Virus record (IMG/VR): IMGVR_UViG_3300020471_000006
Coordinates: 1 to 64,000 of that record
DNA from: a virus
Taxonomy: Duplodnaviria > Caudoviricetes
Reading direction: 5' to 3' (one strand)
Length of the DNA stretch: 64,000 nt
Part shown: one piece after another, positions 26,525-52,924 of the stretch
How positions within the stretch are numbered: position 1 is the first letter of the stretch
Layout of the letters: each line of letters starts with the position of its first letter
Notes under the pieces: generated by a model
Seen by the model: the letters and a program-made list of their open reading frames with translations, nothing else
Told to the model about the DNA's origin: nothing
The model's database searches: none
Translations under genes and position numbers: made by a program

Positions 26525-27073
26525 ATGAGATTAGGAGTATTATGTTCTGGCAACGGAACCAACTTCGAAAATATCCTTAGATCATGTTGGGAAGATGAGG
26601 TTGTGTTGATGATACACAACAAGAAAGATTGTGGTGCTGCTAAGAGAGCAGAAAAATTTGGTGTTCCTCATTGTTATATAAAACATAAGGATGAGGAACA
26701 GATCATTCAACTAATGCAAGCATGGAGAGTTGATCTTATTGTTCTTGCTGGATACATGAAGGTGATTTCACCTGAATTTGTTAAAGCATTTCCCAATAGA
26801 ATAATTAATTTACATCCATCACTGCTTCCGAAGTACAAAGGACTTCATGCAATCGAACAAGCATTGGAGTCAGGTGATAAGGAAACAGGTTGCACAGTTC
26901 ACTATGTAAATGATGAGTTAGATTCAGGTGAGGTCATACTTCAATACGAAGTACCAATTGAACCTGATGATACAGTAGAAACATTAACACCAAGAATACA
27001 GAGACAAGAATATGCAATTCTTCCAGAAGCCATCAAACAAGTTAAGCAACGGAGAACAGTTGGAGTTAATTGA
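26525..27073 (+). CDS. purN: phosphoribosylglycinamide formyltransferase
   Basis: SGNGTNF, LAGYMK, INLHPSLLPKY, GCTVHYV..D.G. Confidence 0.97.
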   Translation: MRLGVLCSGNGTNFENILRSCWEDEVVLMIHNKKDCGAAKRAEKFGVPHCYIKHKDEEQIIQLMQAWRVDLIVLAGYMKVISPEFVKAFPNRIINLHPSLLPKYKGLHAIEQALESGDKETGCTVHYVNDELDSGEVILQYEVPIEPDDTVETLTPRIQRQEYAILPEAIKQVKQRRTVGVN

Positions 27074-27224
27074 TATAGTTTGTAGAATGATATCAACAGA
27101 CGGAGAAGTTTCTTTAAAGGAACGAATCTGGATGCAAGAAAAACTCGATAACAATATACCTGCCAGAGAAATGGTCGGTGCTATGTTGTGTCCTGATTAT
27201 GTACCACATTCATACGAAAATTAA
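27012..27224 (+). CDS. small TerB-like protein, start uncertain
   Basis: MISTDGEVSLKER resembles the TerB DG.v...E motif. Confidence 0.55.
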   Translation: MQFFQKPSNKLSNGEQLELIDIVCRMISTDGEVSLKERIWMQEKLDNNIPAREMVGAMLCPDYVPHSYEN

Positions 27225-27228
27225 GAAT

Positions 27229-27244
27229 TGTATCAAAGACTACA
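27229..27244 (+). promoter_or_regulatory. NtcA-type binding site
   Basis: TGTA-TCAAAGAC-TACA, exact TGTA-N8-TACA. Confidence 0.7.
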
Positions 27245-27251
27245 GTTTTAT

Positions 27252-27280
27252 TTGACTATATAATATAACTGTGTTAATAT
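27252..27280 (+). promoter_or_regulatory. sigma70-type promoter
   Basis: TTGACT-17 nt-TAATAT with extended TG. Confidence 0.65.
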
Positions 27281-27287
27281 TAACACA

Positions 27288-27335
27288 ATCGTTCATCCCG
27301 AAAGGGACGCAAGTAAGCCGACACGGAACGGAACG
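27288..27335 (+). ncRNA. glutamine riboswitch-like motif 1 (glnA/Downstream-peptide class)
   Basis: CGTTCA-TCCC-GAAA-GGGA-CGCAAGTAAG...GGAACG; P1 CGTTC/GAACG. Confidence 0.7.
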
Positions 27336-27520
27336 TTCATCCCATGTTTCATCTAGCAGTTATTGCAACTACCTTTTCTTGTATCGATGCTCAACTATTG
27401 GTTGATAAGATCAATGAGTTTAAGATAGAAGAAGAGACACGAGCTGAGATGATCAGTATAGTGTTAGAAGAAACAACTCATTGTGAGTGGGACGCAAATG
27501 CCGACTGAAGGAACGGGGTC
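27334..27520 (+). ncRNA. glutamine riboswitch-like motif 2 with an ORF in its P2 loop
   Basis: CGTTCA-TCCC-[145 nt]-GGGA-CGCAAATGCCGACTGAAGGAACGGG. Confidence 0.6.
27344..27508 (+). CDS. 54 aa peptide embedded in riboswitch motif 2
   Basis: MFHLAVIATTFSCIDAQ...HCEWDANAD. Confidence 0.6.
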   Translation: MFHLAVIATTFSCIDAQLLVDKINEFKIEEETRAEMISIVLEETTHCEWDANAD

Positions 27521-27548
27521 TTATACACCCTATCCAGAGGACACGCCA

Positions 27549-27689
27549 ATGGCACAAGTCACTTACCGTGGAGTCAAGTATGACTCTGAAGAGTACCGCA
27601 ACATGGTACAAGCAGAAGCACAACATAGAAACCATGATCTAATGTATCGTGGTATCAAAGTAGAACGCAAGTTCGCTTCTAAGAGCTAA
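27549..27689 (+). CDS. DUF4278-like small protein with YRG motifs
   Basis: MAQVTYRGVKY...LMYRGIK; GAGG RBS. Confidence 0.8.
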   Translation: MAQVTYRGVKYDSEEYRNMVQAEAQHRNHDLMYRGIKVERKFASKS

Positions 27690-27714: not shown

Positions 27715-27747
27715 AAATCCAGGAAAAATTTTTCCTGGATTTTTTTG
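27715..27747 (+). terminator. palindromic terminator-like element
   Basis: 28 nt perfect palindrome AAATCCAGGAAAAA/TTTTTCCTGGATTT plus T run. Confidence 0.75.
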
Positions 27748-27780
27748 TGTTTGAAGTCTGATATAAATACCTAATGAAGT

Positions 27781-30858: not shown

Positions 30859-31060
30859 TGTCGGGTTAGCTACCTGACAAGGGAGTGACTGAATTAAACT
30901 TGCTGGCAATGGTCTAGTTAAGGTGATGAGTCAGAGGTGGTGCTCGCTGTTGGGAACAACAGAACTGTCCAACCAGACAGGACTCATGCAGTACAGTAAA
31001 AATTTACTTATGTAGAAATGCCCTGTACTTGTAGGTACACATTATTCCTACCTCCCACCC
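30859..31060 (+). ncRNA. large structured leader RNA, manA-motif-like
   Basis: Stems TGTCGGGT/ACCTGACA, GGGAG/CTCCC, ATGAGTC/GACTCAT, CTGTTG/CAACAG, CTGTC/GACAG, GTACAG/CTGTAC, GTAGG/CCTAC; family name from memory. Confidence 0.65.
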
Positions 31061-31085
31061 CAAATCCAATTAAATCTAAAACAAT

Positions 31086-52560: not shown

Positions 52561-52622
52561 CACAGTGGTAGTGCAGGGCTTTTGTAAAGCCAAGGTCGGG
52601 GGTTCAAATCCCTCTGATGGCA
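52551..52622 (+). tRNA. tRNA-Thr(TGT)
   Basis: Acceptor GCCATCA/TGATGGC, D arm GCAC/GTGC, loop TTTGTAA, T arm GGGGG-TTCAAAT-CCCTC; no encoded CCA. Confidence 0.92.
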
Positions 52623-52624
52623 TC

Positions 52625-52900
52625 CTCTTCTGAGGATAGGTGACGACACCTACATTCTGGACAGGGGTTCGATTCCCCTCATCTCCATTCAGGGGGATGC
52701 CACGGCTTCGACAGGGTATAAGGATCGGGACTGAAACCTGCTTGGATAAGCAAACCATATCTGCAAAAACAGATACACCTGCTGCGAATAACATCGTAGC
52801 ATTCTCACGTCCATTCAGCAAGGTTGCCAAGCGTGACCTCGTGGCTGTTTAGACCATAAGGTGAGATGGGGGTGAGGTTAGCCTTCTAACCCAAATAACC
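52625..52900 (+). ncRNA. ssrA: permuted two-piece tmRNA
   Basis: T arm plus CATCTCC-A precedes GGGGATG (G3:U70 pair); tag frame ANNIVAFSR...; outer ends approximate. Confidence 0.85.
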
Positions 52901-52904
52901 TACT

Positions 52905-52924
52905 GGGGGTGAGATACCCCCTTT
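52905..52924 (+). terminator. hairpin after tmRNA
   Basis: GGGGGT-GAGAT-ACCCCC-TTT. Confidence 0.6.

Follow-up and report, generated by a model that had tools for sequence, protein, structure and literature searches.

Between a PurN-like gene and a ThyX-type thymidylate synthase gene, as annotated in the 64,000 nucleotides (nt) of viral DNA analysed here (the window, positions 1 to 64,000 of the IMG/VR record IMGVR_UViG_3300020471_000006, which is a complete 202.5-kb record of a T4-like cyanomyovirus), lies a cassette in which a conserved small gene occupies the hairpin loop of a glutamine riboswitch aptamer. The cassette is best explained as a small operon in which a promoter and a glutamine sensor precede a DUF4278 (IF17-like) gene that is closed by a terminator, and all of its features given below lie on the plus strand. 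The sensor is made of two units: a compact one (motif 1), and a second one (motif 2) that is interrupted by an open reading frame (ORF) of 54 codons (27344..27508), present in the list of ORFs of the window, which ends W-D-A-N-A-D-TGA and is preceded by no Shine-Dalgarno sequence.

Motif 1 (27288-27334) matches the type 1 glutamine riboswitch model RF01739 at 32.1 bits, under the gathering score of 35, and is the sole such match in the genome; an Rfam scan at the gathering threshold returned nothing at the locus, and in E-value mode it returned unit 1 only, with unit 2 undetected. The Rfam alignment places the 5' strand of helix P1, CGUUC(1), which is invariant in all units, at 27290..27294, and the P2(1) hairpin TCCC-GAAA-GGGA, all four of whose pairs covary in 40 units with short P2 loops, at 27296..27307. 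The junction strand CGCAAGUA (27308..27315) follows, fitting the RF01739 consensus CGGAAGUA and carrying the AGUA half of an E-loop, and the motif also includes GGAACG (27325-27330), a match to RF01739. The partner of CGUUC(1) is GAACG 27326-27330 if the two units are read in tandem, or GAACG 27511-27515 if they are read as nested; these P1 strands (CGTTC at 27290-27294 and 27334-27338, and both copies of GAACG) are invariant in 40 of 40 aligned units.

The 5' half of motif 2, CGTTCATCCC (27334-27343), and its 3' half, GGGACGCAAATGCCGACTGAAGGAACGG (27489-27516), were recognised from the sequence and are separated by 145 nt (27344-27488) that open with ATG 27344. The initial annotation had proposed that motif 2 repeats the stem of the TCCC-GAAA-GGGA hairpin of motif 1 with the tetraloop replaced by these 145 nt, and that a complete 54-codon ORF inside the loop starts with ATG 27344 and ends W-D-A-N-A-D-stop in the core, and the letters agree on both points, the stop being TGA at 27508; the CG overlap of the two motifs at 27334-27335, also reported there, holds as letters but concerns just the unpaired 3' tail of the Rfam motif 1 model, with no shared helix. 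On the 5' side the P2(2) strand TCCCA (27340..27344), supported by covariation, ends with the A of the start codon, and on the 3' side TGGGA (27488..27492) is the Trp codon plus the GA of the Asp codon. The junction strand of the second core, CGCAAA (27493..27498), begins with the third base of the Asp codon, continues through the Ala codon and stops two bases into the Asn codon. The sensor then ends with GAA (the second E-loop half), a G, GAACG(2) (the 3' strand of P1) and G27516 (27507..27516 together), which is the consensus GAAGGAACG of RF01739 in short-loop homologues; GAA 27507-27509 includes the last two bases of the TGA stop, and G27516 is the likely partner of the junction C.

Natural aptamers with both halves letter-identical to those of the window's unit 2 and only 4 nt between them score 35.4 bits (related locus L102) and 33.9 bits (L135), and the short-loop second aptamer of a further relative (L004) scores 37.8 bits for RF01739 and 33.0 bits, which equals the gathering score, for the type 2 model RF01704. 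The window's unit 2 is missed by cmscan because of its 145-nt loop, and judged by its letters motif 2 is a glutamine aptamer with a stretched hairpin, split in two. Between the units, GAACG(1), a GAA loop and CGUUC(2) (27326..27338) could form an inner hairpin (P1'), which appears in the minimum free energy (MFE) fold and has invariant strands; its spacer is always 2-5 nt in related units, and CGUUC(2) stands at -10 to -6 from the start codon of the ORF. As a separate observation, a TGA stop goes together with G after GGAACGG (80/115 units) and a TAA stop with A (40/47); this association is of like with like and is thus not a Watson-Crick pair.

For comparison, IMG/VR loci were fetched in two ways, 80 by homology to the ORF and 120 by the unit-1 core pattern, the latter set being unbiased as to the ORF. 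The reading frame of the ORF is free of internal stops throughout about 136 distinct units, against 751 and 789 stops in the other two frames, and composition-shuffled ORF bodies are open in just 3.3% of trials. In the window subfamily (51 distinct sequences) the median dN/dS is 0.235, and the entropies at the three codon positions are 0.36, 0.24 and 0.74. All 132 unique nested proteins fall into one BLAST component, and Cys13 and Cys47 are the sole invariant residues when 23 sequences with 13-45% identity to the window ORF are aligned. Comparative analysis in this way confirms the nested ORF as a real, conserved gene. The alternative that the insert is an untranslated expansion of structured RNA, open by chance, could appeal to the missing Shine-Dalgarno sequence and to the predicted structure of the segment, but we regard it as extremely improbable in the face of the low dN/dS (about 0.22) with its three-base periodicity, the complete freedom from stops, the two invariant cysteines in a variable background, and the existence of free-standing homologues.

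The window ORF belongs to phrog_504 (E 4.4e-10), and among 23 diverse nested ORFs 15 match phrog_504 and 6 phrog_6471, both of them small cyanophage protein families without assigned function. A profile search of 1.84 billion representatives yielded 312 cluster representatives; the best 149 of the 312 clusters comprise 96 with the tail imposed by unit 2 (DAxxD), 5 with that of unit 1 (xRK) and 48 with other tails, at least 3 of which run through the aptamer core in a different frame (...TQKPTEGTG), and all four of the other-tail clusters that were looked up are free-standing genes lacking flanking aptamer halves. At one such locus (L209, positions 140-313) the free-standing family member lies directly 3' of a DUF4278-like gene with an ATGA stop/start overlap, which indicates that the two families travel together even without the sensor. 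Searching phage isolates by tblastn with the 54-amino-acid ORF gave 5 records (S-P4, S-E7, P-RSM1), a low yield attributable to the short query; in the isolates S-SSM7 and ACG-2014b a 54-codon coding sequence is annotated at the same place, and P-TIM68 and AG-345-P14 have the short-loop form. Among approximately 185,000 prokaryote genomes, none of the 105 candidate stretches found by a scan based on one peptide pattern encodes a relative of the ORF, which hints that the family may be restricted to phages.

AlphaFold2 predicts that the nested protein consists of two helices (residues 13-25 and 30-43) forming a helical hairpin (mean pLDDT 77). Foldseek against the PDB returned generic helical hairpins alone, at E > 2, a BFVD fold search matched uncharacterised cyanophage proteins and the ESM Atlas gave unnamed viral clusters, none of these providing a functional lead, and Pfam assigned the ORF to no family. 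Two other identities were considered and rejected. A leader peptide, or a sensor ORF of the mgtL type, does not agree with a conserved protein that has one Gln codon, invariant cysteines, a predicted fold and free-standing homologues; a lipoprotein or signal peptide, suggested by the hydrophobic N-terminus, would require a lipobox and a charged n-region, neither of which is present.

In the pattern-based set, 69 of the 108 parsed units have a long P2(2) loop and 39 a short one. The long loops are strikingly uniform: 139 of 143 contain an ORF of 49-66 codons whose ATG lies 3-12 nt past the base of P2 (133 of them at 3-7 nt) and whose TGA or TAA falls in the core, so that the conservation in other cyanophages, which the initial annotation had named as a check, is found both here and in the isolates. 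The exceptions are two units with a core 1 nt shorter, in which the ORF reads through, and two with the stop in the P2 3' strand. In a triple arrangement at L134 (IMGVR_UViG_3300020370_000097), an extra short-loop aptamer stands between the ORF-bearing unit and the DUF4278 gene.

The first hairpin can be occupied as well. An ORF ending at the TAA of CGCAAGUAAG enters the unit-1 core in 25 of 188 units, and 24 of these 25 ORFs belong to the same protein family, with 64-69 codons, the same two cysteines and a start just after CGUUCA, and fill the P2(1) loop; their TAA stop is the UA of the junction strand plus the next A. A few further ORFs in the P2(1) loop end within the P2(1) 3' strand or at most 15 nt before the core, and P2(1)-loop ORFs in other phages span 61-69 codons overall. 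One ORF type is found in P2(1) in L092, with the tail ...CEALGRK, and in P2(2) in L181, with the tail ...GCFRDAKAD; as the tail differs with the host hairpin (DAxAD or GRK), the RNA dictates the C-terminal tail of the protein. Some phages (L085-L204, for example L101, L114, L128 and L163) have nested ORFs in both hairpins, giving a chain of three small genes: an ORF in P2(1), an ORF in P2(2) and the DUF4278 gene.

The P2(2) helix is maintained across the ORF. Its positions 1-5 are paired in at least 99% of the 143 long units, with CG, UA, UG and AU alternatives, and its mean length is 6.2 base pairs (bp), compared with 4.46 +/- 0.14 bp with shuffled partners (the best of 1000 shuffles reaching 5.01); in short units four of the five P2(2) pairs covary. 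The codon before Asp, which forms part of the P2 3' strand, can be TGG, GAG, ATA, AGG, AAG, GTA or GGG (W, E, I, R, K, V, G), and the non-coding P2 5' strand 140-190 nt upstream presents the complement or the G-U wobble partner of that codon (CCA/CTA/TCA, CTC/CTT, TAT, CCT, CTT). The long-range TCCC/GGGA pairing postulated in the initial annotation is in this way borne out by covariation, and the P2 hairpin spanning the ORF is, on the comparative evidence, under selection. This bears on the idea that the split second aptamer is dead in ORF-bearing cassettes, its halves surviving merely as a leader and as C-terminal codons while the short first aptamer alone senses. Such a relic would agree with the failure of cmscan to detect motif 2, and the coding capacity of the 3' half means that the protein could explain its conservation; it is nevertheless a very unlikely account, for compensatory changes tie a codon to distant non-coding bases, the covariation between the units described below extends to ORF-bearing ones, the window's 3' half is letter-identical to the 3' halves of the ORF-less L102 and L135, and the protein ends in DAxAD or in GRK depending on the host hairpin, so that the RNA sets the tail and not the reverse.

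The coding sequence itself also favours closure of the hairpin. The predicted probability of P2 closure is 0.70 for native sequences and 0.26 when the interior codons of the ORF are shuffled, and native exceeds shuffled in 131 of 135 units and in all 20 representatives with at most 50% mutual protein identity; for the window the two values are 0.83 and 0.24, and its MFE fold has UCCC/GGGA closed around the ORF (z = -2.7). The contiguous P2 helix includes one or more bases of the AUG in 120 of 139 units and two or three of them in 75, and the window has A27344 paired with T27488. Sensor strands (GGAACGG, a spacer and CGUUCAUCCC) make up the 20 nt 5' of the AUG, the ribosome landing site of the nested gene is CGUUCA-UCCC-AUG, and the gene has no untranslated regions of its own. 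A Shine-Dalgarno-like 4-mer at -17 to -4 is present in 0 of 136 nested ORFs and in 122 of 122 DUF4278 genes. At the other end, the last six codons and the stop constitute the P2 3' strand, the junction, helix Y and the GAA of the E-loop, and the distance from the stop to the DUF4278 ATG is constant at 35-44 nt. Alternation between TGA and TAA is seen in ORF-less units too, which makes the stop a feature of the sensor that is used by the ORF. In rare variants (P0190, P0149) TGG replaces the TGA stop and reading continues through the platform, and in one TGG variant the nested and DUF4278 ORFs form a single in-frame fusion of 116 amino acids.

How tightly the gene is fitted matters for an alternative, that the P2 loop merely tolerates insertion, so that a small gene was recombined in and trimmed for genome economy with no selected link to glutamine sensing. 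Close cassettes do differ in the presence of the ORF: the nearest flank relatives of ORF-less units are often ORF-bearing, the flanks being 97.3%, 96.0% and 95.6% identical across 222-275 nt; among the DNA contigs of the source sample are ORF-less joined forms, part of the family occurs as free-standing genes, and the unbiased set contains the ORF-less units counted above. The swapped segment takes in the P2 3' strand, as would fit recombination inside the conserved halves, and these halves may double as homology arms for the swapping of ORF modules. We nonetheless consider a mere passenger unlikely, since the nested ORF is never found with its own leader or trailer, its start codon is in the helix in 86% of units and a Shine-Dalgarno sequence in none, native ORFs favour P2 closure far above codon-shuffled ones, and the same tight fit arose for two hairpins with different stop contexts; moreover, even a passenger gene collides physically with the fold.

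The two units are linked by a helix of their own. In unit 1 the base 5' of CGGAACGG is A or T, and it covaries with the base at position seven of the unit-2 CGCAAANG, which is T or A respectively, a relation that holds in about 150 of 154 distinct units and several sequence backgrounds, ORF-bearing units included. The covarying bases close a helix (P3) between segment X (AGCCGACN, directly 3' of the unit-1 AAGUA) and segment Y (N'GCCGACU, directly 5' of the unit-2 GAAGG); in the window X is AGCCGACA (27316..27323) and Y is TGCCGACT (27499..27506), the last T of which is the first base of the stop codon. Units fetched for different X segments show compensation: AGUCG with CGACU (27 distinct), AGUCA with UGACU (3/3), AGUUGACU with AGGCAACU, and AGUCACA with UGUUGACU. 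When 40 short units are aligned, the terminal pair of the helix (columns 40-88) reads UA in 16, AU in 15 and is unpaired in none, and over the whole nested structure 95.0% of cells are paired, compared with 87.8% after shuffling (0/500 shuffles reach the native value) and 32-57% with slid partners. A pattern search for X6 variants (CGCAAGTAAGCCGB...) gave no matches.

The E-loop is divided between the units in a complementary manner. Unit 1 has the AGUA half (27312-27315) but CAC or CUC where GAA is expected, and unit 2 has the GAA half (27507-27509) but AAAUG or AAAAG where AGUA is expected; the two halves flank the X/Y helix, and the E-loop is complete just when both units are read as one nested sensor. 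Taken as a single structure, the order CGUUC(1), P2(1), CGCAAGUA, X ... Y, GAAGGAACGG(2) reproduces the type 1 consensus. From these sequence relations, the outer core probably comprises CGUUC(1), P2(1), AGUA, P3 (X/Y) and GAAGGAACG(2), with an inner permuted core in the 'loop' of P3, made of the GAACG(1)/CGUUC(2) hairpin, P2(2) and CGCAAA. In RNAfold predictions the ORF-less L004 adopts the nested topology, and the window forms the inner hairpin. We favour, with reasonable though not high confidence, the interpretation that the two units form one interlaced, nested double sensor. In either topology P2(2) and X/Y span the ORF, and in the nested one the outer P1 does too, giving three long-range helices.

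The initial annotation had envisaged a two-stage logic in which riboswitch 1 gates translation of the ORF, which in turn gates riboswitch 2. One half of this proposal stands, in that ribosomes on the ORF must, by geometry, unwind motif 2; the motifs are not independent, however, being joined by the X/Y helix and the split E-loop, which makes a relay from riboswitch 1 to riboswitch 2 unlikely as stated. In its most developed form, riboswitch 1 would be a stand-alone ON switch for the ORF, the closure of P1(1) by glutamine freeing CGUUC(2) from the GAACG(1)/CGUUC(2) hairpin, and translation of the ORF would unfold riboswitch 2, setting the DUF4278 output negatively, or positively through termination and re-initiation. 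It is true that the ORF is the first gene 3' of motif 1, that this local hairpin lies just 5' of the AUG and is present in MFE folds, that motif 1 is transcribed about 150 nt ahead of the 3' half of motif 2, and that the interval to the DUF4278 ATG is constant. Motif 1, on the other hand, has no GAA half and its X segment pairs with motif 2, and hence it is no complete switch by itself; in ORF-less units the stretch between the motifs contains no expression platform; and the persistence of P2(2) covariation means that the second core must fold on ORF-bearing RNAs. We accordingly give such a relay a low probability. In a nested double sensor with helices spanning the ORF, ribosomes on the ORF would instead open both cores.

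The whole arrangement is transcribed. In two metatranscriptome runs from a sample that is probably the source of the genome, RNA contigs cover 27284-27679 only, and a single 225-nt contig spans 27293-27517, that is, both aptamer halves and the ORF; the flanking genes have zero RNA depth, whereas a DNA run covers them at approximately 37-50x. These data support one abundant transcript carrying the sensor, the ORF and the DUF4278 gene. One RNA contig from a variant phage extends 135 nt upstream of the sensor, and for this reason we do not infer a transcription start.

Both types of glutamine riboswitch raise DUF4278/IF17 translation on glutamine binding and are thus of the ON type (Klahn 2018, PMC6212724), and glutamine stabilises the CGUUC/GAACG helix, a two-piece glutamine-II aptamer reassembling with glutamine (Huang 2019, PMC6698751). 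Considering the geometry of the locus and the known size of the ribosome footprint, a ribosome initiating at 27344 covers CGUUC(2) and the P2(2) 5' strand, and one terminating at 27506-27508 covers Y, the E-loop and GAACG(2). A ribosome at either end of the ORF would consequently unwind aptamer strands, making translation and the sensor fold mutually exclusive: the sensor would be able to fold only while no ribosome occupies either end of the ORF, and a folded sensor stabilised by glutamine would hide the start of the ORF. We hypothesize that at high glutamine the sensor is closed, with the nested gene off and the DUF4278 gene on, and that when glutamine is low the sensor is kept open by ribosomes that are translating the nested gene; this toggle, taken as a whole statement, seems to us about evenly poised between being right and wrong. 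More tentatively still, and with the balance of our judgement against it, the cassette may be an interlaced double sensor that makes use of the ribosome as a switch component, flipping between an open form and a glutamine-locked one that buries the start codon of the nested gene, with reciprocal expression of two proteins, with unit 1 maybe folding first and then exchanging strands as a timer, and with the halves serving as recombination arms.

Several considerations weigh against these interpretations. The P1 strands never vary, such that covariation cannot separate the nested topology from a tandem with an X/Y pseudoknot, and the related sequences are non-independent samples. More than a third of the unbiased units (39/108) are without the ORF and otherwise alike, from which it follows that the sensor can do without the ORF, and the nested gene might be cargo of an optional kind. 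As to the control of the DUF4278 gene, an RNAalifold run with 148 sequences yielded nothing convincing as an expression platform, and no clear pairing against its Shine-Dalgarno sequence was seen. The RNA contigs are assembled and record presence only, being blind to transcript ends, strand and translation; translation of the ORF in infected cells and glutamine binding by the split or nested sensor are deductions from sequence. The regulatory direction is a guess, as a ribosome stopping 40 nt before the DUF4278 start could instead promote its translation through RNA unfolding or re-initiation.

The remaining features of the cassette were mostly recognised from the sequence. Upstream of the sensor, an NtcA-type box TGTA-N8-TACA, which contains the strict form GTA-N8-TAC (27230..27243), is followed on its 3' side by TATAAT (27259-27264), and together they make (27229-27264) a putative nitrogen-regulated promoter; the strict GTA-N8-TAC is found 53-62 nt 5' of aptamer 1 in about 70 of 147 related units. 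If a transcript driven by NtcA (a signal of low nitrogen) carries a glutamine-ON sensor (a signal of high nitrogen), the cassette would behave as an AND-like gate. A perfect 18-nt palindrome, TGTGTTAATATTAACACA (27270..27287), seen in the sequence and in the fold, lies directly 5' of the sensor; because relatives keep a hairpin at this site with differing sequences (for example GTATGCTAACATAC and GTCATGTTATCATGAC), it is probably a 5' RNA stem-loop or the operator of a dimer-binding protein. Downstream, a Shine-Dalgarno sequence GAGGA (27537..27541) precedes the DUF4278 gene (27549..27689), encoding an IF17-like peptide of 46 amino acids (PF14105, 27.1 bits, E 5.5e-6; phrog_5049, E 3e-21), genes of this kind being the usual targets of glutamine riboswitches (Klahn 2018, PMC6212724), and an intrinsic terminator with a 12-bp stem and then a T run closes the cassette (27715..27749). 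On the other side, an ORF of 70 amino acids (27012-27224; phrog_19028, E 1e-21) begins within the final part of the PurN-like gene, which it overlaps, and stops just 5' of the NtcA-type box. Elsewhere the window contains a permuted two-piece tmRNA gene of the cyanobacterial type (52606-52921; RF01851, 128 bits, and RF04321, 76 bits), tmRNAs being already known from marine myophages (PMC9004378), and a manA RNA motif (30859-31061; RF01745, 162.7 bits), which is frequent in cyanophages and counts as an orphan riboswitch candidate.

The cassette thus presents a known riboswitch class in an undescribed architecture. The nested-ORF layout is not described in Weinberg 2010, Klahn 2018, Huang 2019, the S-CREM1 paper, the Melnitz phage paper or the 2025 structural-variants paper, and full-text literature searches, whose coverage excludes Ames and Breaker 2011, returned no description of a gene-in-aptamer layout. 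Riboswitch aptamers are usually treated as compact non-coding domains upstream of their target genes; in this cassette the aptamer itself houses a conserved gene. Nature thereby provides a system for studying competition between translation and RNA folding, in which one sensor may control two genes in opposite ways, and in evolutionary terms a codon and distant non-coding bases evolve together, with the RNA setting the C-terminal tail of the protein. Since Rfam and cmscan miss the split half, phage 'tandem' glutamine riboswitches are misread. As for ecology, the cassette stands behind an NtcA-type box in abundant ocean cyanophages and is strong in metatranscriptomes, and it probably shapes the nitrogen handling of infected picocyanobacteria.

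The structure of the type 1 glutamine riboswitch is reportedly given by Ren and colleagues in 2015. Like that class (RF01739; the Synechocystis gifB leader, PMC6212724), the sensor has the core CGUUCA-P2-CG(G/C)AAGUA ... GAAGGAACG, with an AGUA/GAA E-loop if the two units are read as one nested sensor, and a position in the leader of a DUF4278 gene, and its short-loop relatives reach the Rfam gathering score, although the window's own units do not. It differs from type 1 in having a whole gene in the P2 loop, which measures 4-10 nt in a normal aptamer, with the start and stop inside sensor elements, in having a second, permuted core in the place of P3, and in that the junction C and the G after GGAACG have traded places with respect to the consensus, which is also the case in type 2. 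With the type 2 riboswitch (RF01704, PMC6698751) it shares the ligand-pocket sequences CGUUC/GGAACGG and CGCA, and by analogy with the reassembly of type 2 from two RNA pieces with glutamine, a sensor whose halves lie 145 nt apart seems plausible. Unlike in type 2, for which no nested gene has been described, the flanking P2 helix is not consistently present here: unit 2 of L004 has GUGGA/UCCAC, the window has just GAC/GUC, and many units have no such helix. Tandem riboswitches (glycine riboswitches and the tandem glnA RNAs; Weinberg 2010, PMC2864571) likewise have two ligand-binding cores in one leader, and the glnA alignment of Weinberg includes two GOS scaffolds with this ORF, in which unit 1 alone is aligned and the ORF and 3' half lie in the unaligned flank. 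The cores of the present sensor, in contrast to those tandems, share a covarying helix and one E-loop and are probably nested.

Closer to the nested gene itself, Park and colleagues are said to have found (Cell, 2010) that translation of the mgtL ORF in the Salmonella mgtA leader decides the structure of the RNA. Both systems place a short ORF inside a leader RNA that senses a metabolite or an ion; mgtL, however, encodes a sensor peptide of 17 codons, is located in the expression platform and is not known to have a separate function, whereas the nested ORF belongs to a conserved family with free-standing homologues, fills the loop of the aptamer and shares codons with its core. ORFs residing in a peripheral loop of a group I intron, such as I-TevI in the td intron of phage T4 (Gibb and Edgell 2010; PMC3984707), provide another parallel: in both cases the terminal loop of a structured RNA contains a protein gene, ribosomes that enter the core come into conflict with folding, and conserved parts flank an ORF that can be swapped. 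The present arrangement departs from those introns in that its host is a riboswitch and not a ribozyme, that the ORF encodes no nuclease, and that the start and stop of the ORF are themselves part of the helices of the sensor.

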